The translations under genes were made by a program, and so were the position numbers. Shown one piece after another: positions 6,102 through 20,000 of a DNA stretch of 20,000 nt. The notes beneath the pieces were generated by a model that had not been told where the DNA came from, made no database searches, and saw nothing but the letters and a program-made list of their open reading frames with translations. Origin of the DNA: an uncultured virus (IMG/VR IMGVR_UViG_3300009512_000012). Its lineage: Duplodnaviria > Heunggongvirae > Uroviricota > Caudoviricetes. The DNA lies in IMG/VR virus record IMGVR_UViG_3300009512_000012, one strand, 5' to 3'. Numbering within the stretch: the stretch's first letter is position 1; every line of letters begins with the position of its first letter.

Positions 6102-6102
6102 A

Positions 6103-7596
6103 TTAAAACTCTATAATTAATTTTATGTCTTCGGTTTGGTCTGAAACTCTTTGTATTGGTTGTCTGTTTTCTAAGTACACAATGTTACCACTATCTGGTT
6201 GTAACTCGGGTGTTGCATAACCACTAGTGAAGGTAATAGTATTTCCACCAGTAAGTGTAACTGTATTCGAACTATCAGAAATTGGGGCAGCAACAGCACT
6301 TGAAGTAGAACCTGTTACATTATTTGTGCCACTAAATGCTACAAACGATTGTGTTGTAGTTGCAGTTCCATAAGTTGAAAATCTTTCTTGTTGATAATAT
6401 AATATTTTGTTAGTAGAATCCCACTCAACAACTCTACCAATAGCACCAGTAGTTGTTTGAGTAATTTGTTCATCGACTGAAAATGTACCAGATGCTGAAG
6501 CAAATTTAACAGCATAAGTCATTCTAGCTGTTGATGCAGTTGCCACTGTTGTTGTACCATAAGTCGTAGGGTCTACAACAAGTCCAACATTTCTAAAATC
6601 ATTTGCAGTTGTTACGTCATCACCCTCTGCTTGTGTTAATGTTGTATTGGTCATTACAAAGTGTCCACCTAATTCATTTATCGCATTGTTGCCATGACCG
6701 TCAAAAGGTGAGATAACTATTCTTATTGCTCCACCAGAACCTGAACCAATACTTGTTGAAGAAGATAATGCTGTATCAGAAAAGACATTTGTTAATGAAA
6801 CGTTTCCAAAAGTATAATTTGTACTACCTGCATGAATTGTTGTATCAGTTCCAGCAGTTAAACCAAATGAAGCAATAGCCCCACCTGCAATAGTAATACG
6901 TACAATACCACCAGAAGATGTTCCTTGACTTGTACCATCACCAAAAATTGGAGAGTAGTATGTTCCGTTTGTATAACCTGAACCTGCTGTTACTATAAGA
7001 GATTCAATTTTACCAGCTACGGCCGCAGTAGAAACAGTTGTATCTGTAGATACTGGCATATAATCATTAGTTAAAAATTTTGCACCTTGTGATGCTGTAA
7101 TATTGTACATGTATTTTAAAACATATCCACCAGATGAGAACGGTGATGTACTAGTAGAAGTAGGTTCTGAACCCGAATAAGCAATTCCACCATTGTTATC
7201 TAATACTTTATAGACATTTTGAGTTGATGTTATAAAGTAAAAATTACCTTGATATATCGAAGAGGCACCACTTGTTGTTGTATTTGATGCTGAGATTGTA
7301 TCATCATACATATCGTAAACTGTATTGTTAGCCCAGTTAACTCTTGGAAGAGCGTTAGAGATATTTGAACTTGAAATATTTTTTGCAGCTATCATAGCAT
7401 CCCATGAATAAAACTCACCTGAAACTGAATCGGCAGGTGTTGGAGGTGCTGCGTCTGTTCCCCCTGATGTGCCTGATGTGTAAGGCATTGATTTACCTAT
7501 AAAAAGATAATATGTTGATTTTGAAGTTTCAGAGAATGATTCAACGAATTGTGTGGCGTTGTGTAATCTGAATTTTTCTGTAATAATAGCTGTCAT
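6103..7596 (-). CDS. gp8: Baseplate wedge subunit gp8-like
   Basis: 497 aa with MTAIITEKFRLHNA, YYLFIGK, PRVNW...YDMY, VYKVLDNNGG, GYVLKYMY, GHGNNAINELGG and the C-terminal YLENRQPIQRVSDQTEDIKLIIEF, all typical of T4-like gp8. Synteny fits. Confidence 0.9.
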   Translation of the reverse strand: MTAIITEKFRLHNATQFVESFSETSKSTYYLFIGKSMPYTSGTSGGTDAAPPTPADSVSGEFYSWDAMIAAKNISSSNISNALPRVNWANNTVYDMYDDTISASNTTTSGASSIYQGNFYFITSTQNVYKVLDNNGGIAYSGSEPTSTSTSPFSSGGYVLKYMYNITASQGAKFLTNDYMPVSTDTTVSTAAVAGKIESLIVTAGSGYTNGTYYSPIFGDGTSQGTSSGGIVRITIAGGAIASFGLTAGTDTTIHAGSTNYTFGNVSLTNVFSDTALSSSTSIGSGSGGAIRIVISPFDGHGNNAINELGGHFVMTNTTLTQAEGDDVTTANDFRNVGLVVDPTTYGTTTVATASTARMTYAVKFASASGTFSVDEQITQTTTGAIGRVVEWDSTNKILYYQQERFSTYGTATTTQSFVAFSGTNNVTGSTSSAVAAPISDSSNTVTLTGGNTITFTSGYATPELQPDSGNIVYLENRQPIQRVSDQTEDIKLIIEF

Positions 7597-7614
7597 GAAC
7601 TCTTCCTTTACATG

Positions 7615-7622
7615 TATTTATA
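7615..7622 (-). promoter_or_regulatory. T4-type late promoter TATAAATA (proximal)
   Basis: Exact TATAAATA on the minus strand, 18 nt upstream of the gp8 ATG. Confidence 0.8.
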
Positions 7623-7626
7623 CAAA

Positions 7627-7634
7627 TATTTATA
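7627..7634 (-). promoter_or_regulatory. T4-type late promoter TATAAATA (distal, tandem copy)
   Basis: Second exact TATAAATA offset 12 bp from the first, in the same 44-bp intergenic gap. Confidence 0.7.
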
Positions 7635-7640
7635 CTATAT

Positions 7641-8822
7641 TTAGGTCCTTGTAATAATAACCGAACTACGTGTTACAGGTTGCATTCCTATCGCTGCATC
7701 GTTGTTAGGTATACCTTGATTTACTCCTAATCCATAGTTTACACTAGGGATTTGTCCTACTTCTAGTATCTTTGTTGATTCTTCACTTATTAAATGATTA
7801 AATTCTGCTGCAATATCTAAAAAATCAGTTTCTATTAAAACTGCAAAGTCATCCTCTAGAGTGATTTGGTCAGATTCTAACCCACCACCAGTACCAACTT
7901 CTAATTGAATTCCGTCTTTAGGTTCTGGTTGTAGAGATGTTTCTAATTGTATTCTCTGATTTGATTCTGTTGCAAGTGTTCGTTTCAGTGAACGTGTATC
8001 ATATTCTTCTAAAATTAAAGAACCATTGTCCTCTAATAAAAATCTAAAGTTATCTTCACTCTTTAGTTGTGAATCTAAATCACTTGAAGATTCATCTGTA
8101 CCATCTAAAGTAAGTACACCACCACTTTCTTCTAGTTCAAAACCATCCTCATCAATAGAACCAGAGTTAATATCACCCTGACCTGCGATTGTAGAACGAT
8201 TTGGATTTAGTTTAGTATCATCAAACTGTTCTTGCAAACTATCCTCTGCTGTTAAAATTCTACCATCTTCAGCATTTAGTCTTGTTAATGCAGGTACAGT
8301 TCCGTCTTCAGATATAAGAGCATGGTCGCCATTAAAAAGAATCGTATCTTCTAGTGTTATAACTCTACCATCTTGAGATGCGATAGGTGTTGTACCATCA
8401 AACTCTGCAACAAGTTTATTATCAAGTTCAAATCCTTGTATTGAATTTGGTTGTTCTGATAATATCTTACTTGGTCTAAGTACGTTAGATATATTAATGT
8501 TACCGATTTGTTGAAAATTAAATGTTGATTGATTTGTAGGATTATCTTGTAATAATCTATCTCCAACACTTTGAACTTGAAAGGGTGTAAATGTTAAAAC
8601 AGAAGTTTCAGCAAGAAATCTATTTGTGTCTTGACCTACAGTTCCAAACTCAGCAATAAAATTATCACCATTTGTTTCGTCAACAATAAAATTAGTTTGT
8701 GGTGTTGGTGGAATTCCGTCTAAAATAATTCTTTCTGTTAAACTACCTTCAAGTTGAATACCATCACCATCTTGTTCTCCAAAAGGATTTTGTGCTAAAT
8801 GTAAAAATAAATTTTGTGCCAT
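7641..8822 (-). CDS. Very acidic repeat-rich putative structural protein (baseplate-associated, hypothetical)
   Basis: 393 aa. The start overlaps the gp7 stop (TAATG). It has many [IL]x[LA]E[DTS]G-like repeats and lies between gp7 and gp8. Confidence 0.75.
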   Translation of the reverse strand: MAQNLFLHLAQNPFGEQDGDGIQLEGSLTERIILDGIPPTPQTNFIVDETNGDNFIAEFGTVGQDTNRFLAETSVLTFTPFQVQSVGDRLLQDNPTNQSTFNFQQIGNINISNVLRPSKILSEQPNSIQGFELDNKLVAEFDGTTPIASQDGRVITLEDTILFNGDHALISEDGTVPALTRLNAEDGRILTAEDSLQEQFDDTKLNPNRSTIAGQGDINSGSIDEDGFELEESGGVLTLDGTDESSSDLDSQLKSEDNFRFLLEDNGSLILEEYDTRSLKRTLATESNQRIQLETSLQPEPKDGIQLEVGTGGGLESDQITLEDDFAVLIETDFLDIAAEFNHLISEESTKILEVGQIPSVNYGLGVNQGIPNNDAAIGMQPVTRSSVIITRT

Positions 8823-11800
8823 TATCTTGCCCTCGCTGCTCTAGATACTCTAGAAATTTTAGACACAGGTACAAATACTAATTCTTGTTTACCACCTTGT
8901 ACAGAAGCTGTTTCTGCAAATATTCTGTTACCTTTACCATACATTGTAATTGTACCATCTTCACATAATATACTAACACCTGCATTTTGTGACAATACAC
9001 TTTCTGCTATTAAGTTATCACCTGTCTCTGCAAGTAAATCATCGCCCCCAACTTCTTGAGCAAAAGTTGATGTTGAAGAACCATCGATTGTAACTTTATC
9101 AGTTCTACTTCCTATTCTTGCTGAAGGTCGTACGACATAATGTCGTCTAGGAATATGTTCATCAAATATTTTATTAAATGTAGAAGCAAGGATTGGTGAG
9201 AATGTACCATCAGTATCAACTCTTGCATATTCTTTACCAGCATTTTTAATTGATAATGAAACAAATGATGCAATAGAAACTTTACCAAAAGGATTAAATC
9301 CAGCAGGGTGAACTGCTCTTTTTAATTCGTTTAAATAAGTTGCAGCTGATTGACCAACTTGAACTTCATAAGAAAATGCTTGATAGTAATATGAATCTTG
9401 TATTCTAATTAAATCTTCATCTATTAAAGATTGTACAGAAATATAATTACCATCTGTGTCTTGAGTAATATCTACAATGGTATTTGCTTTGGCAATGTCT
9501 GCTAAAAGAATTGTACCAGATGCACCACTAGAATCCGTTATAACAATATCTTCTTTAGAGAAATCTAATTTATCTTGAGTAATAATATTTGCGTCTGCAT
9601 TGTTTGATGAACTATCTGTACCATCTAAAGCAATGTAGTCACCAATAGAAACGCTATCCTCTGTTTCAAATAATAATGTAAAACCATCCTCAAGAGTTAA
9701 TTTATTACCTTGTTGTTCAGTTCGTAATCTTTGACCTGTCTCACCACCTAAAAATCTAGTACCAATATTAACGTCACCATCAAGAATTAATTTACCATTT
9801 TCACCTGCGATAAGAGCATTAGTAGATTCTAAAAGTATATCTCCACCATCATCTTCTAAATCTAAACCAGTTAATTCGTTTCCACCAGGTTGTGTACCTG
9901 AATCAAGTAACATTTTATGTTTAGTTCTTGTTATAGAATCAAAAACAATATTACTACCTTCATCTGCTATAATTGTATTTCTACTTCTAGTTTCCATAGT
10001 TCCACCATTACCAGAATGATTAGTACCATAATAATATAATGTTGGTGCATTAGTAGGAACAACTATTTGAATATAAGCACCTGCTGTTCCAATTAAAGTT
10101 GTAATTGGTGAAGATGTAACGCCAGAAGTAAACGCAACGCCACCACCGTGAGTACCATCTGGTGTAGAAGAAAATCCAAGTGAATGGTTAAGTGTAATAT
10201 CTTCGTTGTATAATAAGGGGTTAGATAAATCAAATTTGTAAGTACTGCCTTCTTTTAATAATATTTGTTTTTGTCTTTCACCATTTATTATAAAATACTC
10301 ATCACTTGAATCGTTAGGATTTTGATAATGTTTTACATCAATTGTAAAAACTCTAATTGGTTCAAGTTTTGCACTTGTTCCGTCTAAGATAATATTGTCA
10401 TCATCTGTTAATGGTATAATTTGAGTATCCTCTGCAAGTATATTATGATGATTAACATTAGGTTCTTGGTCTTCAAGAATAAATGGAATACTTACAGCAG
10501 TACTACTTTCCATTTCAATTTTTTCAGAATCTTCAAATGTCACATCTAATTGTTGAGTTGTTGAATCATAACCTTGAACTGTACCAACATGAGTTGTTAA
10601 AGTATTGTTAACTGCAAACGTACCAGTAACATCTTTTAAAATAAAGTGTGCTTGTAATGTTATGTTTGGTAAATCAGTTTCATCATAATTAAAACCAGAA
10701 TCTTTTATTCTTAAAGAATTTACAGCACCGATATCATTTGTCAATGCTAAAAGTTTTGCACCAGTACCACTTTCAGATGTAACTGTAATTGTTGGAAGAC
10801 TTGTATAACCAGTACCTGGTGTTTGTAAAAATATTTGATTGATAGCTGTCTTTTCTGCTTCTGTATCAAATGAAGCTTCTTCAAGTATGATTCTTTCATC
10901 ATCATTTGTAAGTGTGTCTAAAGAAACTTGAGTTTGATTTGTTATTAATTTATCACCAGCATTTAAACCGTTACTATCTGTTCCTTCTAATATAATATTA
11001 TCTTCAGTTTGTGGTGGCCATGAAAGATATGTTTCTGAATCATATGAACCTGTTGGTTTGGCAACTAGTCCATGATTCATTTGACCTTTTGGCATATAAA
11101 AAGTTGTGCCAGGAAATTCTATAAATGTATGTGGATGTGATTCAGTTGTACCACCTGCAGCTACAGCAGTTAAAAATAAAGGATAAAAATATCCTGTTTT
11201 ACCAGCACCTAACTGATTGTACTCAGCAGTACCATAAACATAGTAAGGGCCATCAGCAATTTCTTTTGTTTCTAATGCAACATTAAATGGTAAGTCAGAA
11301 AGTTTAGAAGCCGTTTCTCTTTGCATACCATCACCGTCTTCAAATAAAAGTGAACCTCCTAAAGCAGATACTACACCAGTAGCAGCTATAACCCCATCTC
11401 CAGCTGAAAACTCAAGTTTGTCACCAACTTCATAACCAGAACCTGGTGTTTGCACAAATACTTTTGATATAGAACCTTCTTTTATATTGTTAACTTCAAT
11501 TTCAGCAAAACCATTACCTTTGTCAGCATCAACGGTTGCAGTTTCAGTTAAAGAATGTAATATACCATCATTTGTAATTTCAGTATCAGATACTATAGAT
11601 TTTATTGTAAAACTTATACTAATATCTTTTGTGTTTGAAATGACATCAATAATTTCTCCTGTTTGAAAATTTGTTACACCTGGTATTATATTTTCAAGTT
11701 CAAATTCAGAAACAGAATCATCACCTTGAATAAATGTTGACGCTGCATCTATTACTGCTGTAGCGAAAGAAGTTCTTCCTGTGATAACTTGACTTAAAGC

Positions 11801-12559
11801 TTCTGAACCAGTTCCTTGTCCATTTGATACACAACGTAATTTTTTCTTTGTAGACCATTTTCCGTCAGAAAGACGTAACATATTTTGATTAGGATAAAAT
11901 ATATTAGAACTTTCATTAAGTAATAAACGCATAAAAAGTTTATGACCTTGAGATGTACCTTTGGCAGCATACAGGTCTCTAATATTTTTTATAAGATTTC
12001 TTTTTGATACACCTGTTGCAAGTGTATTAGGTATAACTTTTAAAAACGATTCTCTAAATTGCGTAAAGAATTCATTAACAGTATTGTCAATATCAGCGTA
12101 GTCTAAAAGTTGTTGAATGTTTTGTACTGGGTTACCTTTGTATTCAGTAAGTTCAGCTTCTGCACCAGATGTCAATCCTTTAATTATTTCGCCAACTTCA
12201 AATCTTTGGTTAGAAGTTGTGTATAAAGAAGCGTTACGAACATCTTCAACTATGATAGTTGTTTCAGCACCTGATGTTTGTCCTTTAATAATTTCACCAT
12301 TTTGAAATTCTGTAGAATCTTCAAGAACCATTCTATCAATGGCTGCACCAAGTACTCCATTTTCAGATAAGACATATGCTTTTGTTTCTGGTTCTAGAGT
12401 AAGATAGTTTGTACCAGTTTTATATTTTAATCTGGCAGATTCTAAAAACTTATAGAAGTCGGTAACAAATGCAGAGTAAACGGCATGGTCTTCGTCTTGA
12501 AGAAAATCTGGTAGTTGTCCTCTTATTAATGGTGAGAGTTTATTATCTATTATTGCCAT
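8822..12559 (-). CDS. gp7: Baseplate wedge initiator gp7-like
   Basis: 1245 aa. The N-terminus has QLPDFL, FVTDFYKFLE, LIKNIRDLYAAKGT...KLFMRLL and YPNQNMLRLSDGKW. The C-terminus has IQDSYYYQAFSYEV...LKRAVHPAGF. These are signature motifs of marine T4-like gp7, and it follows gp6. Confidence 0.88.
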   Translation of the reverse strand: MAIIDNKLSPLIRGQLPDFLQDEDHAVYSAFVTDFYKFLESARLKYKTGTNYLTLEPETKAYVLSENGVLGAAIDRMVLEDSTEFQNGEIIKGQTSGAETTIIVEDVRNASLYTTSNQRFEVGEIIKGLTSGAEAELTEYKGNPVQNIQQLLDYADIDNTVNEFFTQFRESFLKVIPNTLATGVSKRNLIKNIRDLYAAKGTSQGHKLFMRLLLNESSNIFYPNQNMLRLSDGKWSTKKKLRCVSNGQGTGSEALSQVITGRTSFATAVIDAASTFIQGDDSVSEFELENIIPGVTNFQTGEIIDVISNTKDISISFTIKSIVSDTEITNDGILHSLTETATVDADKGNGFAEIEVNNIKEGSISKVFVQTPGSGYEVGDKLEFSAGDGVIAATGVVSALGGSLLFEDGDGMQRETASKLSDLPFNVALETKEIADGPYYVYGTAEYNQLGAGKTGYFYPLFLTAVAAGGTTESHPHTFIEFPGTTFYMPKGQMNHGLVAKPTGSYDSETYLSWPPQTEDNIILEGTDSNGLNAGDKLITNQTQVSLDTLTNDDERIILEEASFDTEAEKTAINQIFLQTPGTGYTSLPTITVTSESGTGAKLLALTNDIGAVNSLRIKDSGFNYDETDLPNITLQAHFILKDVTGTFAVNNTLTTHVGTVQGYDSTTQQLDVTFEDSEKIEMESSTAVSIPFILEDQEPNVNHHNILAEDTQIIPLTDDDNIILDGTSAKLEPIRVFTIDVKHYQNPNDSSDEYFIINGERQKQILLKEGSTYKFDLSNPLLYNEDITLNHSLGFSSTPDGTHGGGVAFTSGVTSSPITTLIGTAGAYIQIVVPTNAPTLYYYGTNHSGNGGTMETRSRNTIIADEGSNIVFDSITRTKHKMLLDSGTQPGGNELTGLDLEDDGGDILLESTNALIAGENGKLILDGDVNIGTRFLGGETGQRLRTEQQGNKLTLEDGFTLLFETEDSVSIGDYIALDGTDSSSNNADANIITQDKLDFSKEDIVITDSSGASGTILLADIAKANTIVDITQDTDGNYISVQSLIDEDLIRIQDSYYYQAFSYEVQVGQSAATYLNELKRAVHPAGFNPFGKVSIASFVSLSIKNAGKEYARVDTDGTFSPILASTFNKIFDEHIPRRHYVVRPSARIGSRTDKVTIDGSSTSTFAQEVGGDDLLAETGDNLIAESVLSQNAGVSILCEDGTITMYGKGNRIFAETASVQGGKQELVFVPVSKISRVSRAARAR

Positions 12560-12569
12560 ATTGCTTCAT

Positions 12570-14540
12570 CTAGTAAGAACTGCTTGAACTTGAACTGCTT
12601 GAACTTGATGAAGTACCACTTGTTGTTCCACCAGAAGTAGTTACAGTCGTTGATGCGCTACTACCACTACCTGTTGTCGTAAACGTTGACCCTGAAGCAG
12701 ATTGTGTATCTGTGTTGCCTGTTATAGTTGTATTAAAAAAATCTATTTCTAAGATTTGGTTTCGAACAGGTACAATATCATTTGAGTTTGGTATTACAAC
12801 TAATCGTATTGTTGTGGATATTGAACCATCTACATCTGAAATAGCTGTAATATTAATATTACTAACACTAATGGCTCCTGTGTCATAGTCTATTGTTCCA
12901 GCTTGTTCATCAATATAAGAACGTGCTGTACCAACAATAGCATATCTTCTTAGATTGCCGTTACCATCATCATCAAAAAAATATTCTGTTACTGTATCAG
13001 TACCAACTTTAAAACCTGTTGATGATACAACTCCTCCAACACTAGCAAGATAACCTGCCTCAGGGTGAAATAAAGCGTTATTAAATGGTATGTAATAAGA
13101 GATTGTTGTACCTTGAGAAGGTAAAAAGTTCTTTGTTAATTTTACAGTTGTAGTATTATTTAGAATTGATGGGTCGGCAGAATCAATAAGTCTTGAAACT
13201 TCGGATGCTCTAAACTGTGAATTAAATTGTTGTAGTGTGTCTGTGTTGTAATTTGTAATAGCAGTTGTAATTGCTGAATCGATAGCTGAAGAAAGTTTAG
13301 TTGTCGCTGATGTATCAAAAGAATATCCAACTGCCAATTGAATAAAAGTTGTGTCTGGGTCAACAATAACAGGTGTAATAGAAGCAACTGTGTATGGTGC
13401 TAACTCTGTTACCAATTGAGACTTTTGCGTAGATGTTAAAATAGAACCTGTTGTTGATTTGATTGAAATAAAAACTTTACCATATTCGGGTGTTGAACTA
13501 ACACCAGTTGATGAATCATAACTTCCGTCTTCTCCACCAAAAACTGAAACAGCTTGTGTGTTTGGAAATAATCTTTTTGTAAGGACTTCAAAGTCAGAGG
13601 TTGTTACGGCACGACCTTGTGTTGCATAATCAAGAGGTGCATTTGTTTTAATAGATTTTAAAGATTCTGGTTCAGCTCCACCCTCTGCTCTTAAAACAGT
13701 AGTAATGGTAACGTCAGATTCATCACCAATAGAACTTGGTGGACTAAATTGAAATGCGCCATTGGCTTCTGTTTTATTAGTTACAACATATTGTAGTAAA
13801 ACAATATTACCATCTTCAATAGCTTTAGATATAATACCATCTCCAAAATAAACTTCATGTTTTCCACCTTCAACTTCTTGTAAAAAGTAAACAGTAGATG
13901 TATTAGTCAACTGTGTAATGTCAGTTGCCTTTGTAAAAGTTGTTGTTGCTGAATTGGTAGAAGAGTTAATAACCTTAACTGTTAATGTTGATGTGTCAGC
14001 ACGATTATCTCTTAATAAAAATCTTTGTTCAATGTCAGATGTATCTGTTGTGTAACGAGTTGTTACGAAGGTACCTTCGTGAACAAAAATAGAATCAAAG
14101 TTTATCGAGTTACCAAATTTTGTAGAAGTCTGGTCTTGAGATGTAACAAAGTTATAAGATGTACCATCGTAGCTTGTAGAAAACTTTGTACCTGCTGGCA
14201 TTGTAATAGATGTTTGGTTTGTTCTAATAGAAACATTGATAATTGCTTTTGCAGCTCTTGCTGATTGAACTTCATATCCTAACATTTTAGCATGTGACAC
14301 TACAGACGAACGTAATGATGCTGAATCTAAAAACATTTCATTCGCTAACATGTTAGCGTTGAAACCTAAGTAGTGAGTATTGTATGCAAGTGTATCAAGT
14401 AGGATATTAAAACCAGAACCATCAAAGTCATAATCTTTAAAAGTGTCTTGGGCTTTTAAAAATATTTTTAAGTTCTCTTTGATTTGGTCAAAGTCTAGTT
14501 CGGTAATTCTTAATCTTTTTTTATTAACAATGGTTGCCAT
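12570..14540 (-). CDS. gp6: Baseplate wedge subunit gp6
   Basis: 656 aa with ELDFDQIKENLK..F.DYDFDGSG..ILLDTLAYNTHY..NE.FLDSA.LRSSVVSHAK.LGY, YFGDG, QGRAVTTSD and YGKVFISIK. It ends in a Ser/Thr/Gly-rich tail (SSSY). Confidence 0.95.
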   Translation of the reverse strand: MATIVNKKRLRITELDFDQIKENLKIFLKAQDTFKDYDFDGSGFNILLDTLAYNTHYLGFNANMLANEMFLDSASLRSSVVSHAKMLGYEVQSARAAKAIINVSIRTNQTSITMPAGTKFSTSYDGTSYNFVTSQDQTSTKFGNSINFDSIFVHEGTFVTTRYTTDTSDIEQRFLLRDNRADTSTLTVKVINSSTNSATTTFTKATDITQLTNTSTVYFLQEVEGGKHEVYFGDGIISKAIEDGNIVLLQYVVTNKTEANGAFQFSPPSSIGDESDVTITTVLRAEGGAEPESLKSIKTNAPLDYATQGRAVTTSDFEVLTKRLFPNTQAVSVFGGEDGSYDSSTGVSSTPEYGKVFISIKSTTGSILTSTQKSQLVTELAPYTVASITPVIVDPDTTFIQLAVGYSFDTSATTKLSSAIDSAITTAITNYNTDTLQQFNSQFRASEVSRLIDSADPSILNNTTTVKLTKNFLPSQGTTISYYIPFNNALFHPEAGYLASVGGVVSSTGFKVGTDTVTEYFFDDDGNGNLRRYAIVGTARSYIDEQAGTIDYDTGAISVSNINITAISDVDGSISTTIRLVVIPNSNDIVPVRNQILEIDFFNTTITGNTDTQSASGSTFTTTGSGSSASTTVTTSGGTTSGTSSSSSSSSSSSSY

Positions 14541-14986
14541 TATCGTAATCTCTCTAAAAATAAATCCATTTCTACCATCTCGGTAGGTGTATTTCTAACA
14601 TAGAAATCTACAGTCACACTGTAAGCATTTCTGTCATAATCAGGTGTGCATCTTACAGCTTGTAATTTAGCACGAGGTTCGAAGTTACGAATAACATCTT
14701 CAACTTTTCTTGCAAGGACAACACCAGTAATAGGTGTCATGTTTTCAAATAACATATCACGTATACCAGAACCAATTTCTGGGTGAAAATGTTTTTCAAA
14801 TGGATTCAATAATACTAAATTACGTATAGAACGTTTGACTGCCTGTACGTCTTCAATAACATTGATATCTGAGTTTGAGTTTTTCCTAGCAAAAAATAGG
14901 TCTAAATCAGAATATACTTTTGTAACTTTACTTGATGCATTGGTTGACTGTGCATCAGAACCTTTATCACCTACAATATGTGTCAT
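14540..14986 (-). CDS. gp25: Baseplate wedge / sheath initiator gp25
   Basis: 148 aa with YSDLDL, AVKRSIRNLVL, EKHFHPEIGSGIRDMLFE and IRNFEPRA, ending in LERLR. The stop overlaps the gp6 start (TAATG). Confidence 0.93.
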   Translation of the reverse strand: MTHIVGDKGSDAQSTNASSKVTKVYSDLDLFFARKNSNSDINVIEDVQAVKRSIRNLVLLNPFEKHFHPEIGSGIRDMLFENMTPITGVVLARKVEDVIRNFEPRAKLQAVRCTPDYDRNAYSVTVDFYVRNTPTEMVEMDLFLERLR

Positions 14987-15007
14987 AGAGCCACTCTCCT
15001 ACAAGAG

Positions 15008-15015
15008 TATTTATA
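15008..15015 (-). promoter_or_regulatory. T4-type late promoter TATAAATA
   Basis: Exact octamer between the gp5 stop and the gp25 start, followed by a GGAG Shine-Dalgarno. Confidence 0.8.
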
Positions 15016-15018
15016 CAG

Positions 15019-15876
15019 TTAATCTCCAATGATAACAGTTTTAGAGGATGAAGTTATACTTCCAATATCGTTTCCGTTTAATTCAGTATCATTGTCTAAT
15101 GTTGTATCTGATAATCTTGCGGCTCCGTTTTCACCAGAGTTTAAATTAATAGTTTTATTTACACCACAATCGATTTTGATATTACCATCTGCTTTAATTG
15201 TTAAATCACCAGTCACATGAATGTTATCATTGCCCGTAACTGTTCTAAATCCGTTCTTATGTTGTGTTACGACATCACCGTTAGGATGAAATTCAACAAA
15301 AGACCCTGATTTGTGATAGACATGAATTCTTTCTGCGTCCGTTGTGTCATCAATTTCAATGACATGACCTGATTCGGATTCAAAAACATGATTGTTTGGA
15401 TACACAGCATTGTAAGGATTGTCAGGTTCGCCTGTAATTATATCAGGTGTTTTCGTTATTGTGTTCGTTCCTCTTGCAAGTTTATTAACATCTGATTGTA
15501 ATAACTCTTTAGGGTACTTTGCATTCGGGTCATTAAATCCTTTTGCAATATCAATCTCTTGTGTAGGAATACCTGGCAAACTTCCCATAACAACGAGTTG
15601 TTGTTTTTCTGGGTCCATAAAAAATCCTACAACCCATGTGCCTTCGATAATAAAACTTGGTGAAGTTCCTATGCCTGAGTTGGCTGAACTTGTTGTTGGG
15701 GTCATGACTTGGGCCCAAGGTAAATCTTGTGTTGGTAAATCAACTAAATCGTCTGTATGAAATCCAAGACAACGAACTTGTACACGTCCTAATTGACTAG
15801 GGTCTTGTCGTGATTCTACAACACCGACAAACCAATGAAAACCATCCATGCCCATAAAGTTTTGAATTTTGTCCAT
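15019..15876 (-). CDS. gp5: Baseplate hub / central spike gp5 (OB-fold plus short beta-helix, no lysozyme domain)
   Basis: 285 aa with WFVGVVESRQDP..LGRVQVRC.G.H, DLPWA, GTWVVGFF.D and YPNNHV.ESESGHV.E.DDT...ERI...HKSG. It is too short to include the T4 lysozyme domain. Confidence 0.92.
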   Translation of the reverse strand: MDKIQNFMGMDGFHWFVGVVESRQDPSQLGRVQVRCLGFHTDDLVDLPTQDLPWAQVMTPTTSSANSGIGTSPSFIIEGTWVVGFFMDPEKQQLVVMGSLPGIPTQEIDIAKGFNDPNAKYPKELLQSDVNKLARGTNTITKTPDIITGEPDNPYNAVYPNNHVFESESGHVIEIDDTTDAERIHVYHKSGSFVEFHPNGDVVTQHKNGFRTVTGNDNIHVTGDLTIKADGNIKIDCGVNKTINLNSGENGAARLSDTTLDNDTELNGNDIGSITSSSKTVIIGD

Positions 15877-15881
15877 ACAAG

Positions 15882-15889
15882 TATTTAGT
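15882..15889 (-). promoter_or_regulatory. Variant late promoter (ACTAAATA)
   Basis: TAAATA core in the 14-bp gap before gp5, 5 nt from the ATG, with no Shine-Dalgarno in the gap. Confidence 0.5.
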
Positions 15890-15890
15890 C

Positions 15891-16547
15891 TTAGGAATTA
15901 TATTTAATCACGTCTTCTATACTAGAGTTTTGAAAATTTCTAGGAGATGACCATTGTGTATTGTACATATTTCCAGCAATCATAATTCTTTCACCTTCGA
16001 CAGGTTTCACTTCATGTTGTATGAAGCCTGGAAAAACTATCAGGTCACCGACTTTAGGATTGTATTCATAGTTCGCAGTAGGAAAGATAATAGGTGCATA
16101 CTCTGGCATCTTTACATAATATCCAAATGCAAAAGTATAAGGAAAATGACTGTGACGTTTTGCTGAAGTTTTTTCTGTGTAGTGAATACCCCATGATTCA
16201 TTGCAATACATTTTTGTTGGGGCTAGTCTTAAACAAATTTGTTCTGCAAGACGACACGCCTGGTCAGTAATCCATTTGATACTTTCAAATTCTGTATGTA
16301 AATGCCAATCGGTCATTCGAGCTTGCACATTAGACGTTCGAATTACACCACACTTTTCTAATATGGATAATTCACAATCAATGTGTAGAGGAACTTCTTG
16401 ACCAGAATGTCTTTTAATCGTATGAGACATTGCGTCATCATAGATATTACGAATTGCAAAAGGATATCTTTCTGCAACTTCAATATAATCTTTAGGTCGA
16501 TTTAAATCGGATAGGGATATTTTCTTATCGATATTAGCGTTCTTCAT
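15891..16547 (-). CDS. Putative 2OG-Fe(II) oxygenase (TIGR02466 / 2OG-FeII_Oxy_5-like)
   Basis: ESWG..Y......HSH....AFGYYV....P..GDLIVFPGFIQHEV....ERIMIAGN gives HxH...H iron ligands and the 2OG-binding Arg of the double-stranded beta-helix fold. An AAGGAG SD is present. Confidence 0.85.
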   Translation of the reverse strand: MKNANIDKKISLSDLNRPKDYIEVAERYPFAIRNIYDDAMSHTIKRHSGQEVPLHIDCELSILEKCGVIRTSNVQARMTDWHLHTEFESIKWITDQACRLAEQICLRLAPTKMYCNESWGIHYTEKTSAKRHSHFPYTFAFGYYVKMPEYAPIIFPTANYEYNPKVGDLIVFPGFIQHEVKPVEGERIMIAGNMYNTQWSSPRNFQNSSIEDVIKYNS

Positions 16548-16576
16548 AATATAAACTCCTTTAAAGGATTCAAATG

Positions 16577-17362
16577 TTAGGATGCGATGTAGTTATTGTA
16601 AGTATCAACCCATCCATGCCATGTTGATTCTGTTACAGGGTCAGCTCCCATAAATGTACAAAGTGCTTCGTAGTGTGTCGTGTTCTTTGCAATAATTAAA
16701 TCTTGACAAAGTTGAAAGTTTTTGCTATCATCAGGATGCAATGTTTTTAATTTTATCATTGCTTCTGTGCGTTGTGCCCACCATGCATCGGTGATGTCTG
16801 TATTAGAATCTTTTGTACGAGATGCTTGTTCACGAGCTTTGAAAGTTGTTGTCCAAGACGCATGAGTAAAATCATCCCAAGTTAAAAAGATAACTTTTGC
16901 TCCAGCACCTGTGATAGTATCATAAGTGTTTGCAATATTGGAAGGTGTCCATGTTATACCTGTTGGGTCAATCACACCAGGGTAGTGTATACCACCTCCA
17001 TAGATGTCATTAGACATTGCACCTTGATAAATGAAAGGAAGGTCTTCGACAACTGTAGGACAAGCACTTCCCTTATCCCAATCAGCGTCTATTGTATTTT
17101 GAACTTGTTCGTTTGTATCTGCAAGTTTTCCACTCAAGAAAGATGAGTTAAAGGTTTCAGGATTTGCTGGGCCGTACATAACATTTATGTATGTGTTGTC
17201 TTGAATTTTCCAAGATTTAAAAGGAGCTTCAGGTCTATCACCTTCTCCGTCATTATTTGCTTTTGCAATCCAATCATCCGTATAGGATAAAGTCTTTGCA
17301 ATAATATAAAAATTTAAATCAATAAAATCATTATGATTATGTGATAAACAAAAATACGCCAT
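16577..17362 (-). CDS. Hypothetical protein, possibly a degenerate sulfotransferase-like fold
   Basis: 261 aa with an AAGGAG SD and a late promoter upstream. GAKVIFLTWDD and YEALCTFMG resemble sulfotransferase C-terminal motifs, but no PAPS-binding loop is recognisable. Confidence 0.6.
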   Translation of the reverse strand: MAYFCLSHNHNDFIDLNFYIIAKTLSYTDDWIAKANNDGEGDRPEAPFKSWKIQDNTYINVMYGPANPETFNSSFLSGKLADTNEQVQNTIDADWDKGSACPTVVEDLPFIYQGAMSNDIYGGGIHYPGVIDPTGITWTPSNIANTYDTITGAGAKVIFLTWDDFTHASWTTTFKAREQASRTKDSNTDITDAWWAQRTEAMIKLKTLHPDDSKNFQLCQDLIIAKNTTHYEALCTFMGADPVTESTWHGWVDTYNNYIAS

Positions 17363-17380
17363 TAGTAAGAACTCCTTTAG

Positions 17381-17482
17381 TTAAGTTACAAGTTTATTTA
17401 TAATGCCAAAAGGCCCCAACAACAGAAATACTATCAAAGAAAGAAAACGCTCAGAACGCTTCGCTCGGAAATCGATATTCAT
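17381..17482 (-). CDS. Putative 33-aa hydrophobic peptide
   Basis: MNIDFRAKRSERFLSLIVFLLLGPFGIINKLVT. The start overlaps the zf-CHCC stop (ATGA). It has a basic N-terminus and a hydrophobic stretch, and it spans the late promoter. Confidence 0.4.
   Translation of the reverse strand: MNIDFRAKRSERFLSLIVFLLLGPFGIINKLVT
17395..17402 (-). promoter_or_regulatory. T4-type late promoter TATAAATA
   Basis: Exact octamer 32 nt upstream of the 261-aa ORF start. Confidence 0.75.
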
Positions 17483-17628
17483 TTCTTAATAAACTTTCTA
17501 TTACAATACCCACAGACAACCTCAGATTGTTTCTTGAGAGAGTAATAGACAGTCGGATGTCCTAAGTCACCCTCTCCTCCGTCACACTTGATACTGTCAG
17601 ATGTTACATAGAGTATTTCAAATGCCAT
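17479..17628 (-). CDS. zf-CHCC zinc-finger protein (NDUFS6/NUMM complex I accessory subunit-like), 49 aa
   Basis: Manual translation gives MAFEILYVTSDSIKCDGGEGDLGHPTVYYSLKKQSEVVCGYCNRKFIKK. It has the exact C-x8-H-x14-C-x2-C spacing with the CDGG...LGHP.VY...CGYC...F signature. It is shorter than any ORF in the track. Confidence 0.88.
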   Translation of the reverse strand: MAFEILYVTSDSIKCDGGEGDLGHPTVYYSLKKQSEVVCGYCNRKFIKK

Positions 17629-17701
17629 AGAATAATAATACGGAAATCAGTATGAGAGACATGACCATATACTTTTGATATTGTTTCTTTGGGTCTTGCA
17701 T
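17618..17701 (-). CDS. Putative 27-aa single-pass membrane peptide
   Basis: MQDPKKQYQKYMVMSLILISVLLFYGI. It starts 4 nt after the upstream stop and overlaps the zf-CHCC start by 11 nt. Confidence 0.5.
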   Translation of the reverse strand: MQDPKKQYQKYMVMSLILISVLLFYGI

Positions 17702-17705
17702 AATA

Positions 17706-17891
17706 TTACTTATATGTTAACATACCAAATTTGTTAAACTTATATAATCTTTCTGCAATTGTGACACCATCCTGTCCAAATTCCTCTTGACATGCTTTGA
17801 TACAAGATTCCTTAGAGACGTTACTGTCTTTTAACGATTGTGCAAACTCTGTTATAATCTGTTCTTTAGTTGTGAGTTTTGGTATTGACAT
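17706..17891 (-). CDS. Hypothetical protein (61 aa)
   Basis: ORF with a GAAGGAG SD inside the upstream gene, in a tightly packed operon. Confidence 0.7.
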   Translation of the reverse strand: MSIPKLTTKEQIITEFAQSLKDSNVSKESCIKACQEEFGQDGVTIAERLYKFNKFGMLTYK

Positions 17892-18084
17892 GAAAGTACT
17901 CCTTCAACCAATCTTGCAAATAATGTATAGTATCATCATAGCCAACCAAATCCCATGACTGGTTAGATTGTAAACAGTTCTCAACTGCTGTGTCTAGAGA
18001 AATCTCTTGAGATTCTATTCTCTTGATTTGTGCGTTAAGAAAGTTCTCTGCTTCATCCCAAAAATATGCCATTGTTTTACTCAT
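17866..18084 (-). CDS. Hypothetical acidic early protein (72 aa)
   Basis: Has an AAGGAG SD and its own sigma70-like promoter directly upstream. Confidence 0.75.
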   Translation of the reverse strand: MSKTMAYFWDEAENFLNAQIKRIESQEISLDTAVENCLQSNQSWDLVGYDDTIHYLQDWLKEYFHVNTKTHN

Positions 18085-18116
18085 AGTGTATGTACTCCTT
18101 ATTGTTGATTCATTCT

Positions 18117-18145
18117 ATTGTATCAGTAATTGTTTATGTTGTCAA
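18117..18145 (-). promoter_or_regulatory. sigma70-type early promoter
   Basis: TTGACA-17 bp-TACAAT with an extended -10 TG and an upstream A-tract. It overlaps the last codons of the upstream ORF. Confidence 0.85.
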
Positions 18146-18302
18146 GTTTTTTAACAGTAAATTTAACTCCAAGACTTTTCAATCTTGCATTTTCTTTTTC
18201 AGCATCTTCAGGTGTCTGAAAAATATGTTCTACTTGTTCATCTTCTAAATCTAGATTTAAAGTATTCTCTTCGTAAGTTCTTTGATATAAGTGTATATTC
18301 AT
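18123..18302 (-). CDS. Hypothetical early protein (59 aa, start revised to MNIHLYQ)
   Basis: The ATG at 18302 follows a GAGG SD and lies downstream of the promoter. The longer ORF-track start falls inside the -35 box. Confidence 0.7.
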   Translation of the reverse strand: MNIHLYQRTYEENTLNLDLEDEQVEHIFQTPEDAEKENARLKSLGVKFTVKKLDNINNY

Positions 18303-18333
18303 TATGTAACCTCTCGTTTCATTGATTAATTTT

Positions 18334-18362
18334 ATTGTACCAGAAATTCTTCTCATTGTCAA
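18334..18362 (-). promoter_or_regulatory. sigma70-type early promoter
   Basis: TTGACA-17 bp-TACAAT with an extended -10 TG and an upstream A8 tract. Confidence 0.85.
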
Positions 18363-18400
18363 GTTTTTTTTATATGCATTTAAGTGTAAGAGTTAGCGCT

Positions 18401-18520
18401 AGTTTTAAGGGGGGTGGGGTGTGACAAGTTGTACTGGTTGTAAAATAGTACAGAATAGTATAGGGAATCTACATTGCATTTATAGATTACATATAACACA
18501 CCAGTTTAAAGGGTGGGGGT
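18401..18520 (+). repeat. Two imperfect direct repeats ending in G-tracts
   Basis: AGTTTTAAGGGGGGTGGGGT (18401-18420) and AGTTTAAAGGGTGGGGGT (18503-18520). Confidence 0.7.
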
Positions 18521-18524
18521 TACG

Positions 18525-18776
18525 GTAGCATATAGCACAACGGCCCTTCGCATAGTTAGACGACTAACATCAAAAGGGCCATATGCTTAGACACAAAGGT
18601 CTTACAAGGGGCCGAGACACTCTCAACTTCCACCCCACACTCTGATATCGAGAACTTTCAGGCATCACCATAACTAGGAGGTCAAAGAATGCCTTACGTG
18701 GGCCACCAAACTACCTTAATGAGAGAGCCTCGGTGGTAATCATCTGGTACTTTTGCAATTGCTCAACCATATGATG
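18525..18776 (-). ncRNA. Candidate structured non-coding RNA (family not recognised)
   Basis: Lies directly downstream of a strong promoter, is GC-enriched and has no long ORF. It has about six adjacent helices whose imperfect pairs are G-U on the minus strand. The boundaries are approximate. Confidence 0.55.
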
Positions 18777-18781
18777 TCTTT

Positions 18782-18810
18782 ATAGTAACATAACTCTACG
18801 TATATGTCAA
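18782..18810 (-). promoter_or_regulatory. sigma70-type early promoter
   Basis: TTGACA-17 bp-TACTAT with an extended -10 TG and an AT-rich upstream region. It points into the non-coding structured region. Confidence 0.8.
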
Positions 18811-18843
18811 GGGTTAATTAAATAAAAAAAATATTCATTTTAC

Positions 18844-19059
18844 TTATATTGATAATTTTTCGTATTTAACTTCTTCAAGACCACAAGGTCCACCAACAAG
18901 TAGGTCTTCTCCTACGTTTAACATAGCAAAATCTTTTTCCCACTCGTCTCCCATGTAGGCGTCTAAACCAAAATCTTTGATTTCTTCAAAAGAAAAAACC
19001 TTAGATGTGCCATCTGCATCGCCATAACCAGATAACCAAGTAACTTTAAAATTGTTCAT
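18844..19059 (-). CDS. Hypothetical acidic early protein (71 aa, start revised to MNNFKV)
   Basis: The ATG at 19059 follows an AAAGGA SD. The ORF-track start lies within the promoter. Confidence 0.75.
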   Translation of the reverse strand: MNNFKVTWLSGYGDADGTSKVFSFEEIKDFGLDAYMGDEWEKDFAMLNVGEDLLVGGPCGLEEVKYEKLSI

Positions 19060-19086
19060 AATGTATCCTTTCGATTTCATAAGATT

Positions 19087-19115
19087 ATAATACATGGTTT
19101 TAGGGTAAATGTCAA
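19087..19115 (-). promoter_or_regulatory. sigma70-type early promoter
   Basis: TTGACA-17 bp-TATTAT, with an overlapping TATAAT shifted 3 nt downstream. Confidence 0.75.
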
Positions 19116-19138
19116 GGGTTTAGTTGGTTATTAATGTC

Positions 19139-19254
19139 ACATGTACTGTATATACCTCTTTATCAGCTAGAACGAAGCGCTGACCTCGAGATGGAACAGC
19201 TGTAATTGCAGTAATCATATGAATGCTATAGCTATACCCCTCAGGTACAGTACC
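19139..19254. repeat. Palindrome-dense element bounded by an 8-bp inverted repeat (possible small RNA or DNA element)
   Basis: GTACTGTA (19143-19150) and TACAGTAC (19246-19253) form the ends, and eight perfect palindromes of 6 bp or more lie within ~115 bp. Confidence 0.6.
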
Positions 19255-19255
19255 T

Positions 19256-19283
19256 ATTATACACAGAATGTCAGGCTTGTCAA
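19256..19283 (-). promoter_or_regulatory. sigma70-type early promoter
   Basis: Perfect TTGACA and TATAAT with a 16-bp spacer. Confidence 0.75.
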
Positions 19284-19383
19284 GGCCTTTCTTGGTTATT
19301 CTCGTATTATTTGTGAGTATGTGTGGAAATATTAGCCGATAGGCCGCAGACTTTAATCACATAGACCGGTCGAACACCTATGT

Positions 19384-19557
19384 TTATTTAAGCCTTTTTC
19401 TTAACTGTCCGAAATGGGTGTATATTCGATAAAATACATGTGGTACATACATTGGATAACTCATATTCCCTTTGATATGCCATAGACATCCAAAGAATCT
19501 ACCCTCAATATGACTATATCCAACGATTCGGAAAATATTACTTCTATTCTGTATCAT
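19384..19557 (-). CDS. Hypothetical basic protein (57 aa, start revised to MIQNRS)
   Basis: The ATG overlaps the 3' end of the upstream ORF by 14 nt. The longer start would overlap it by about 100 nt. Confidence 0.5.
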   Translation of the reverse strand: MIQNRSNIFRIVGYSHIEGRFFGCLWHIKGNMSYPMYVPHVFYRIYTHFGQLRKRLK

Positions 19558-19735
19558 TTCTCTTTTTAGGTAAGCAATCAGGGTTTCTAGCTTGTATACT
19601 GTCAAATAGGTCTTTTCTTGGTGATTTTCCTTTTCTCTCATCTCTCATTCTTTTGGAATGTTCATAAGAGATTCTTAGTATTTCTTCTTCTTTTGGAAAC
19701 TCTTCGTCAAAGTACTTTGTTTCTTCGTTCATCAT
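19544..19735 (-). CDS. Hypothetical protein (63 aa)
   Basis: ATGA overlap with the upstream ORF; charged sequence. Confidence 0.65.
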   Translation of the reverse strand: MMNEETKYFDEEFPKEEEILRISYEHSKRMRDERKGKSPRKDLFDSIQARNPDCLPKKRNDTE

Positions 19736-19926
19736 AGGAATTCTTTCTCATCATTACTATACTTCATAATGTAATCGTACATGAACTGATGAGCCATTGC
19801 GTTAGGATGTTCTGTCTTCAGCGCTTCGTGTCCTGTTGTATTAGCAATGTCATCTGATATAGGGCCGATGAAGTTTCGTATTCTCCATTCGCCATTGGGA
19901 AATGCTTTTCTTAATTCATGTTTCAT
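19732..19926 (-). CDS. Hypothetical protein (64 aa)
   Basis: GAGGA SD and ATGA overlaps at both ends. Confidence 0.65.
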   Translation of the reverse strand: MKHELRKAFPNGEWRIRNFIGPISDDIANTTGHEALKTEHPNAMAHQFMYDYIMKYSNDEKEFL

Positions 19927-20000
19927 TGTTGTTCCTCATACCTACTCCATGCCGGCATGAGAAAGAGTATTTTGTCATAGTTCTCATTGTGTTTTACATA
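19923..20000 (-). CDS. C-terminal fragment of a hypothetical protein (5'-truncated)
   Basis: The open frame ...YVKHNENYDKILFLMPAWSRYEEQQ* ends in an ATGA overlap with the next gene. Confidence 0.5.
   Translation of the reverse strand, partial: YVKHNENYDKILFLMPAWSRYEEQQ

Follow-up and report, generated by a model that had tools for sequence, protein, structure and literature searches.

Why would a marine phage carry a gene for a protein that resembles an accessory subunit of respiratory complex I? The question is raised by a 20,000-nucleotide stretch of DNA from an uncultured virus (IMG/VR record IMGVR_UViG_3300009512_000012), here called the window. An earlier note, made from the sequence of the window, had pointed to a phage-borne open reading frame (ORF) of 49 amino acids (aa) with the pattern C-x8-H-x14-C-x2-C, and had taken its product for a minimal homologue of the mitochondrial complex I subunit NDUFS6/NUMM, of the zf-CHCC family. 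The quoted string and spacing were found on the minus strand at 17479..17628, and the family, the small size and the phage setting (T4-like baseplate genes are present in the window) all held up. Judged by its sequence, the ORF is a real gene encoding a full zf-CHCC family member with four metal ligands, and we regard it as a host-derived candidate auxiliary gene aimed at complex I. The best explanation, held tentatively and at a little under an even chance, is that it is a functional host-derived copy of an alphaproteobacterial NDUFS6/NUMM-type protein that docks on the complex I of the host and helps the NADH-oxidising module (N-module).

The zf-CHCC protein and its predicted fold

The ORF begins with ATG and its 49-aa translation is MAFEILYVTSDSIKCDGGEGDLGHPTVYYSLKKQSEVVCGYCNRKFIKK, in which the ligands are spaced C15-x8-H24-x14-C39-x2-C42. 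A profile search, proposed in the earlier note as a check on the family assignment, matched the protein to Pfam PF10276 (zf-CHCC) with 56.3 bits and an E-value of 3.1e-15, over profile positions 3-37 of 37; the curated cut-off is 27 bits. All four metal ligands (Cys, His, Cys, Cys) are present in family order and spacing. We identified 624 relatives at E<=0.001 among 1.84 billion representative proteins using phmmer, the best with 57-62% identity, and a protein atlas returned zf-CHCC clusters only. A 25-row alignment (the phage protein and 24 relatives) shows no variation at H24, P25, C39, Y41, C42 or the GG of CDGG, and almost none at C15. Fourteen residues lie ahead of the first ligand, C15. 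The description as a minimal homologue is fair: among the 150 best relatives, whose median length is 68, only two fall below 49 aa. As part of the tentative explanation given above, the protein would be a zf-CHCC domain pared to a bare beta-sandwich, with zinc binding suggested by its ligands.

Sequence comparison with solved structures returned chains named NDUFS6, with E-values from 1e-10 to 2e-7. The best was Drosophila NDUFS6 (8b9z_R; E 1.2e-10, aligned over residues 11-49), and mammalian NDUFS6 was matched by various chains at about 3e-8. Matches to bacterial structures include the stand-alone proteins 2jvm (E 1e-9) and 2jrr (E 4e-7) and chain 8qby_R of Paracoccus complex I (E 5e-7). An AlphaFold2 model built on the 25-row alignment has five strands and a mean predicted local distance difference test value (pLDDT) of 85.2. 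When this model was searched with Foldseek, all eight matches at E<=0.001 were zf-CHCC or NDUFS6 chains. The top matches (2jvm, 8qby_R and NDUFS6 chains) have query-normalised TM-scores (TMq) of 0.72-0.78 and E-values of about 1e-4; for 8qby_R the TMq is 0.76 and the root-mean-square deviation is 1.9 Å over 47 columns, with 40% identity. The phage protein is thus predicted to adopt a small beta-sandwich like that of solved zf-CHCC members.

Cytochrome oxidase subunit COX5b was considered as an identity for the protein and rejected. Its chains were matched at E 0.15 and 0.96 by sequence (vs 1e-10 for NDUFS6), and at E 0.019-0.027 by Foldseek (vs 1e-4).

Purifying selection and distribution

Two other IMG/VR contigs, L001 and L002, carry the zf-CHCC gene in identical gene order, with protein identities of 100% and 98%, respectively. 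The gene differs from that of L001 at three bases, all synonymous. L002 (gene at 3963-4112) is the single diverged phage relative behind the selection estimate, and differs at 10 bases, nine of them synonymous and one a replacement (L5I). The proportions of synonymous (pS) and replacement (pN) differences are 0.305 and 0.009, a pN/pS of about 0.03 (Fisher p 1.3e-6). The gene is kept by purifying selection, a point on which the earlier note had proposed that its reading be checked.

The pS against L002 is 0 in the neighbouring 61- and 72-aa genes, 0.07 in the oxygenase gene and 0.12 in gp5 (range 0 to 0.13). Because the value of 0.305 in the zf-CHCC gene exceeds those of the flanking genes, the L002 allele seems to have been acquired through recombination with a more distant phage. 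Despite this presumed recombinant origin, the protein is nearly unchanged (98% identity).

A 2-kilobase (kb) stretch around the gene is near-whole in 15 DNA runs from marine or seawater metagenomes, counting runs that hold at least half of its sampled words. Leaving aside the possible source study, 11 runs from 11 studies hold this stretch. Two DNA runs added no variants inside the gene. The zf-CHCC gene is carried by a widespread marine T4-like phage.

It might be asked if the gene is a recently captured passenger without any role in infection. A passenger would suit the restriction of the gene to one narrow phage lineage, its location in a variable region of small genes and the lack of a ribosome-binding site of its own. 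We regard this as very improbable, given the nine synonymous changes to one replacement between phage variants and an intact gene both in all three phage contigs seen and in the runs of 11 independent studies. Further, the gene shares only 64-75% nucleotide identity with the nearest cellular genes, so the capture was not recent.

Rarity among phages

Judged by the identity of gp6, the isolates closest to this phage are Pelagibacter phage Mosig (50% identity), Methylophilales phage Melnitz (48%) and Pelagibacter phage HTVC008M (48%), with cyanomyophages at 36-37%. The PF10276 profile found no match in the complete genomes of Mosig, Melnitz-3 and HTVC008M (0 of 3), and both IMG/VR relatives carry the gene (2 of 2). 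There is no PHROGs family for the 49-aa protein. A tblastn search of 50,697 phage records with this protein gave no match at E<=0.01 or at E<=10 and was probably underpowered; a search of the same records with a typical 63-aa relative (P0005) was likewise empty at E<=1. The tblastn negative carries little weight, since the result is empty even at E 10 with a short query and the low-complexity filter on.

Searches of IMG/VR returned the same small set of phages. A single-protein search identified three loci, of which two carry the gene (100% and 98% identity) and the third (L003) is an 11-residue match. A scan with the 25-row alignment gave 79 pattern matches, one of them confirmed, and this is the same near relative. 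The DNA motif C[DN]GGxGxxGHP occurs in two stretches, one being a chance match in an unrelated ORF of a GC-rich phage, and the wider motif GG-x4-GHP-x13-CxYC occurs in one stretch, again the near relative; these motif scans do not capture variants whose loops differ in length, and may not have covered records close to the window. The best representative protein (P0002, 57% identity) was not found in viral contigs. Among metagenome contigs there were five loci, three bacterial and two that are 11-residue matches. No zf-CHCC gene is present in G001 (12.7 kb), the nearest record.

Our literature searches turned up no paper on a phage-borne zf-CHCC/NDUFS6 gene. The accessible text of a pelagimyophage survey contains neither "NADH" nor "respirat", and "zinc" appears there only in an unrelated sense (PMC7029224). 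No phage of the AEGEAN-169 clade, which becomes relevant below, is described by the titles among the matches listed for AEGEAN-169 and phage.

Source of the gene

Genomes were scanned with a 6-row query alignment, using one genome per species and considering the best 80 of 558 confirmed relatives. The two best are AT-rich alphaproteobacterial single-cell genomes, with 61% and 55% identity. An even class sample of 401 alphaproteobacterial genomes contains 291 with a match to the phage protein (among them G227 and G426, which are unpublished and on which nothing else is based), and a single order, HIMB59, accounts for the four best (61, 60, 64 and 52% identity). When the domain was compared by blastp, scores were 67-73 bits (55-64% identity) for the five best cellular rows and 62 bits for the next best. 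The second family of the HIMB59 order (GCA-002718135) scores 58-61 bits, and six zf-CHCC proteins of the SAR11 order score 49-52 bits, with 42-45% identity.

A phylogeny had also been proposed in the earlier note. In a maximum-likelihood tree of 116 rows and 49 columns, which does not settle the finer order, the phage protein stands beside the five best cellular rows, from the HIMB59 family. The clade with these phage neighbours has 34 rows (the five best, 21 of the second family and eight others) and support of 99/93. Of the genomes involved, AG-333-K07 and AG-313-A14 are assigned to f_HIMB59, and AG-891-P06, AG-894-D03 and AH-287-M11 to f__GCA-002718135 (PMC10734472, supplement file 7). Order HIMB59 comprises these two families in GTDB (PMC10734472, accessible text), and the HIMB59 group has been equated with the AEGEAN-169 clade in a paper that also names the isolates LSUCC0245 and HIMB59 (PMC10308909, accessible text).

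The probes SAR11-441R and 732R served to recognise SAR11. An exact match for SAR11-441R was found in one of the 401 class genomes (G574), which is the probe's positive control. Neither probe matched in 187 HIMB59-order genomes, in a set of 5 genomes or in a set of 10 small genomes. When window positions 6000-20000 were searched as DNA against the 187 HIMB59-order genomes, the sole match was the zf-CHCC gene itself (106 nucleotides (nt) at 75%, in one genome), and 401 SAR11-order genomes gave no match. No phage contigs were identified among these 187 and 401 genomes, with two candidates scored per genome.

From these comparisons, the gene was most likely taken from a HIMB59-family-like bacterium, and HIMB59/AEGEAN-169 bacteria are a lead to the host of the phage. 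The earlier note had hinted at an alphaproteobacterial host such as SAR11 or SAR116. An alphaproteobacterial source is supported, but the host lead moves to HIMB59/AEGEAN-169, since the nearest homologues are those of the HIMB59 family and the SAR11-order proteins are more distant.

The HIMB59-family genomes encode the parts of complex I that are relevant here. Four of four genomes have nuoG and nuoI in a nuo operon, and each of the four also has an NDUFS4-type gene. An NDUFA12-type gene was identified in two of four, the other two being partial assemblies of 1.0-1.1 megabases (Mb). The accessory set of this family (NDUFS4, NDUFS6 and NDUFA12) is the same trio as in Paracoccus.

Predicted docking on complex I

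According to the accessible text of PMC11522691, Paracoccus denitrificans NDUFS6 (Pd-NDUFS6) is a four-strand sandwich that coordinates Zn2+ and is without the mitochondrial N-terminal domain. It contacts mainly NDUFS1 and NDUFS8 and stabilises the N-module, in agreement with the statement in the earlier note that an alphaproteobacterial homologue is part of Paracoccus complex I. Also, Ca2+ bridges its Asp48 to NDUFS8-Asp88 (PMC11522691, accessible text).

We folded the phage protein, as the 25-row alignment and with a zinc ion, together with NuoG (677 aa) and NuoI (162 aa) of a HIMB59-family genome (G002). The docking score is 0.55 (0.55, 0.57 and 0.52 in separate runs), and the best of three controls scored 0.06. 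The runs show contact agreement of at least 92%, with a partner pLDDT of at least 75. In the calibration, 116 of 157 solved complexes and 2 of 215 mismatched pairs passed the mark; scores of 0.60 or less form a weak band, which holds 18 of the 157 solved complexes and both of the passing mismatches. A complex fold with NuoG and NuoI had been suggested in the earlier note. It gave a score well apart from the controls, but one in the weak band, and it may be a product of model memory because like complexes have been solved, in which case it shows NDUFS6 likeness and not binding. The seating of the phage protein on NuoG/NuoI therefore has weak support.

The docking calculation is also blind to help versus harm. 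The trimmed phage protein might act as a decoy at this same site, competing with the host zf-CHCC protein or sitting on an incomplete enzyme, and so lower or re-tune complex I (for example, to generate less reactive oxygen or to redirect NADH). Compared with the HIMB59-family proteins, the phage protein lacks 8-12 residues at the N terminus and the final residue, it is among the shortest of its relatives (as noted above), and the early-type position of its gene fits a host take-over. However, the missing ends are unconserved and probably disordered parts, and the core is 55-64% identical to cellular proteins and under strong purifying selection, as a retained native function predicts. We consider a decoy quite improbable.

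Gene neighbourhood and expression

Every long ORF in the window is read from the minus strand, and together these ORFs form a T4-type baseplate module, identified using Pfam and PHROGs (Table 1). Judging by these genes, the window represents the baseplate module of a marine T4-like myophage that has pelagimyophages among its relatives. No other respiratory genes were identified in the 20-kb window by Pfam and PHROGs, and neither Rfam families nor tRNA genes were found in it.

Table 1. Features of the window discussed in the text, with positions counted from its first letter.
Feature	Position	Strand	Evidence or remark
DUF4815 protein, >2033 aa	3-6101	minus	PHROG 358, 1673 bits; runs off the window
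gp8		minus	Pfam/PHROG match
gp7-like protein, 1245 aa		minus
gp6		minus	PHROG 219, 584 bits
gp25		minus	Pfam/PHROG match
gp5		minus	OB domain
2OG-Fe(II) oxygenase	15891-16547	minus	Pfam match; PHROG 81, 78.5 bits
261-aa ORF	16577-17362	minus	AAGGAG ribosome site; no Pfam or PHROG match
33-aa ORF, hydrophobic core	17381..17482	minus	ORF; no Pfam match; reality uncertain
TATAAATA	17395..17402	minus	33 nt ahead of the 261-aa ORF; bounds the small-gene unit on its downstream side
zf-CHCC (NDUFS6/NUMM-type) gene, 49 aa	17479..17628	minus	ORF, Pfam, AlphaFold2 model, Foldseek, pN/pS about 0.03 vs L002
27-aa ORF, hydrophobic C-terminal half	17618..17701	minus	ORF; no Pfam match; reality uncertain
61-aa gene	17706..17891	minus	AAGGAG ribosome site; directly upstream of the 27-aa ORF/zf-CHCC; identical in L002; no Pfam or PHROG match
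72-aa gene	17866..18084	minus	AAGGAG ribosome site; identical in L002; no Pfam or PHROG match
Sigma-70-like promoter site	18117..18145	minus	TTGACA-17-TACAAT, 11/12, TG before -10
59-aa gene	18123-18302	minus
Sigma-70-like promoter site	18334..18362	minus	TTGACA-17-TACAAT, 11/12, TG before -10; ahead of the 59-aa gene

The zf-CHCC gene lies upstream of the baseplate module, within a run of small ORFs on the same strand. Its ATG is 8 nt before the stop of the 27-aa ORF, so that the reading frames overlap, and its stop overlaps the ATG of the 33-aa ORF (ATGA). The latter overlap is conserved in L001 and L002. The 27-aa ORF is retained in L002 with two synonymous changes and one replacement, and an indel in L002 alters the tail of the 33-aa ORF with hydrophobicity kept. 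Both flanking ORFs combine a polar head with a hydrophobic stretch of 16 residues. Either they are not genes, or they might encode mini membrane proteins that are produced alongside the zinc finger.

The two 11/12 sigma-70-like sites are 500-730 nt upstream of the zf-CHCC gene on the same strand, and we found no terminator-like site between them and the gene. Five sites in the window score 11 or 12 of 12, and four of these occupy minus-strand gaps that precede small ORFs. The sequence TATAAATA, the T4 late-promoter consensus, has four exact occurrences in the window (7615-7622, 7627-7634, 15008-15015 and 17395-17402), all four on the minus strand and in gaps ahead of gp8 (twice), gp25 and the 261-aa ORF; the count of four shows no excess over a shuffle mean of 2.6. 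Control of the zf-CHCC gene by early promoters is plausible from this arrangement.

Some transcripts may have been sampled. In one RNA-library run there are three 151-nt pieces at 99% likeness or better, one of them across 17425-17575, which may be DNA carry-over. In another (X20) the cover is limited to 18050-18460 at a likeness below 95%. The RNA runs have no cover of 16500-17370, which is uninformative by itself.

The 261-aa ORF heads an apparent late unit, before the oxygenase and gp5, and its L002 version has 266 aa with indels. The oxygenase gene, inside the structural module, has the 261-aa ORF on one side and gp5 on the other; Mosig carries a similar oxygenase gene in the variable region between gp5 and gp25. 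The Mosig counterpart of the DUF4815 protein is annotated "putative VrlC protein".

Further upstream, a stretch of about 470 nt (18370-18843) is without any minus-strand ORF of at least 45 aa. By eye, its G+C content seems higher than that of its surroundings, with runs such as CCCCACCC, and a TTGACA-17-TACTAT site (18810-18782) is ahead of it. A structured RNA in the GC-richer ORF-free part (18370-18775) is unsupported (fold z -1.5; no Rfam match). L002 has a comparable ORF-poor gap at about 2543-3228.

Proposed role and alternatives

In the explanation that we prefer, the zf-CHCC gene would be transcribed with the neighbouring small genes from the sigma-70-like promoters, before the late baseplate genes, a timing that we infer from the gene anatomy. 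The protein would bind zinc and dock at the NuoG (NDUFS1)/NuoI (NDUFS8) interface of the complex I of the infected cell, which is the seat of NDUFS6 in Paracoccus. Homology and the weak fold result point to this seat. There the protein would help to hold or complete the NADH-oxidising module, and NADH oxidation and membrane potential may thereby last through the infection. That the effect would be supporting rather than damaging is the least secure step.

Several observations weigh against this explanation. Some concern the protein itself. The docking score falls within the weak band, and memory of solved structures by the model may account for it. In Paracoccus the fourth ligand is followed by the Ca-bridging Asp48 (C47-D48 in 8qby_R); the aligned phage protein has Asn43 at this position (C42-N43). 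The HIMB59-family proteins likewise have Asn here, and G is found in family GCA-002718135 and S in SAR11-order proteins; the Asp48 bridge is a feature of the Paracoccus enzyme and not family-wide. Further, zf-CHCC is not a core need of this phage group, because none of the three nearest isolates carries it.

Others concern expression. The gene is without a Shine-Dalgarno site, unlike the 61- and 72-aa genes and the 261-aa ORF, and its translation would depend on coupling to the doubtful 27-aa ORF. The earlier note had placed the gene under early promoters. The two upstream sites, the lack of a terminator-like site after them and the position of TATAAATA beyond the gene fit this placement, but the 14 promoter-like sites in the window are no excess over the shuffle mean of 15.1.

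The remaining points concern the cellular family. Among 101 sampled genomes of the order of G574 (SAR11 by probe), zf-CHCC is above the cut-off in 51, and the probe-positive 1.3-Mb genome G574 is without it while keeping NDUFS4- and NDUFA12-type genes. The protein is thus dispensable for complex I in some relatives. Along the list of sampled genomes of this order, those with and without zf-CHCC alternate, as if two sub-groups differ. In HIMB59-family genomes the cellular gene is outside the nuo operon and directly after htpG, with a 4-nt overlap between the two genes in L008 (2109-4153) and L140 (1130-3147). A LysR regulator and SelO are on the other side of the htpG (Hsp90)-zf-CHCC pair. Finally, zf-CHCC is listed as a cytochrome oxidase subunit Vb precursor in the accessible text of PMC10411912.

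Taken as clues to function, the coupling to htpG, the subunit Vb listing, the weak COX5b chain matches (E 0.15 by sequence and 0.02-0.03 by Foldseek) and the absence of the family from half of the sampled SAR11-order genomes, all of which are expected to respire, would suit a partner other than complex I. This might be cytochrome oxidase, a client of HtpG or a phage protein, with the NDUFS6 likeness reflecting ancestry only; a role for bacterial zf-CHCC proteins has been shown only in Paracoccus. We judge such a partner unlikely, as the NDUFS6 chains are far closer (E 1e-10; TMq 0.72-0.78) than COX5b, and the putative donor lineage has the whole NDUFS4/NDUFS6/NDUFA12 set.

The explanation in which the protein supports complex I can be extended. 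The phage may encode the first virus-encoded structural subunit of complex I, made early and perhaps together with two coupled mini membrane peptides, which takes the NuoG/NuoI seat and keeps or re-tunes the NADH-oxidising module; coming from family HIMB59, the gene would also mark this widespread myophage as the first one recognised for the AEGEAN-169/HIMB59 clade. As a whole, we hold this extension to be doubtful. In a bolder variant, the phage may infect SAR11 lineages that have lost zf-CHCC and restore the missing subunit.

Significance and comparison with known systems

If the protein seats on complex I, the manipulation of energy metabolism by phages would reach the main respiratory NADH dehydrogenase of abundant heterotrophic plankton, at the level of both its assembly and its stability. 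If so, it would also be a natural 49-residue minimal NDUFS6, useful for probing the role of this disease-linked subunit. The ancestry of the gene provides a testable host lead, tying a widespread uncultured myophage to the HIMB59/AEGEAN-169 clade.

A close counterpart is Paracoccus denitrificans NDUFS6 (PdNUMM; PDB 8QBY chain R, 62 aa). Like the phage protein, it consists of a single zf-CHCC domain without the mitochondrial N-terminal domain, and the two agree in their ligand pattern and in the beta-sandwich predicted for the phage protein. With 13 residues fewer, the phage protein has C-x8-H as its first loop where Paracoccus has C-x9-H, and Asn43 takes the place of Pd-Asp48. It is encoded by a virus, and its association with complex I is a prediction.

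The HIMB59-family zf-CHCC proteins (AG-333-K07 and AG-313-A14; L008, L009) have the highest identity of the cellular proteins searched (55-64%), and share with the phage protein the string GDLGHPxVY and the ending YCN[RK]KFIKK. They differ in length (56-60 aa), in an N-terminal extension and in the location of the gene after htpG, whereas the phage gene is among small phage ORFs.

Mitochondrial NDUFS6/NUMM (the 13-kDa subunit) has a C-terminal Zn domain homologous to the phage protein. It is reported to act with NDUFS4 and NDUFA12 in attaching the N-module (PMC11522691, accessible text). The chains listed have 89-139 residues, including an extra N-terminal domain that contacts NDUFS4 and NDUFA12, and the phage protein is without such a domain.

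Marine phages carry host genes that sustain energy supply during infection. Cyanomyophages, for example, carry photosystem and electron-transport genes as auxiliary metabolic genes. The zf-CHCC gene resembles these in its probable derivation from a host, in its location in a variable region of a T4-like marine phage and in plausibly sustaining the energy supply of the host. It differs from the known phage energy genes in its target, which here would be an accessory subunit of respiratory complex I.

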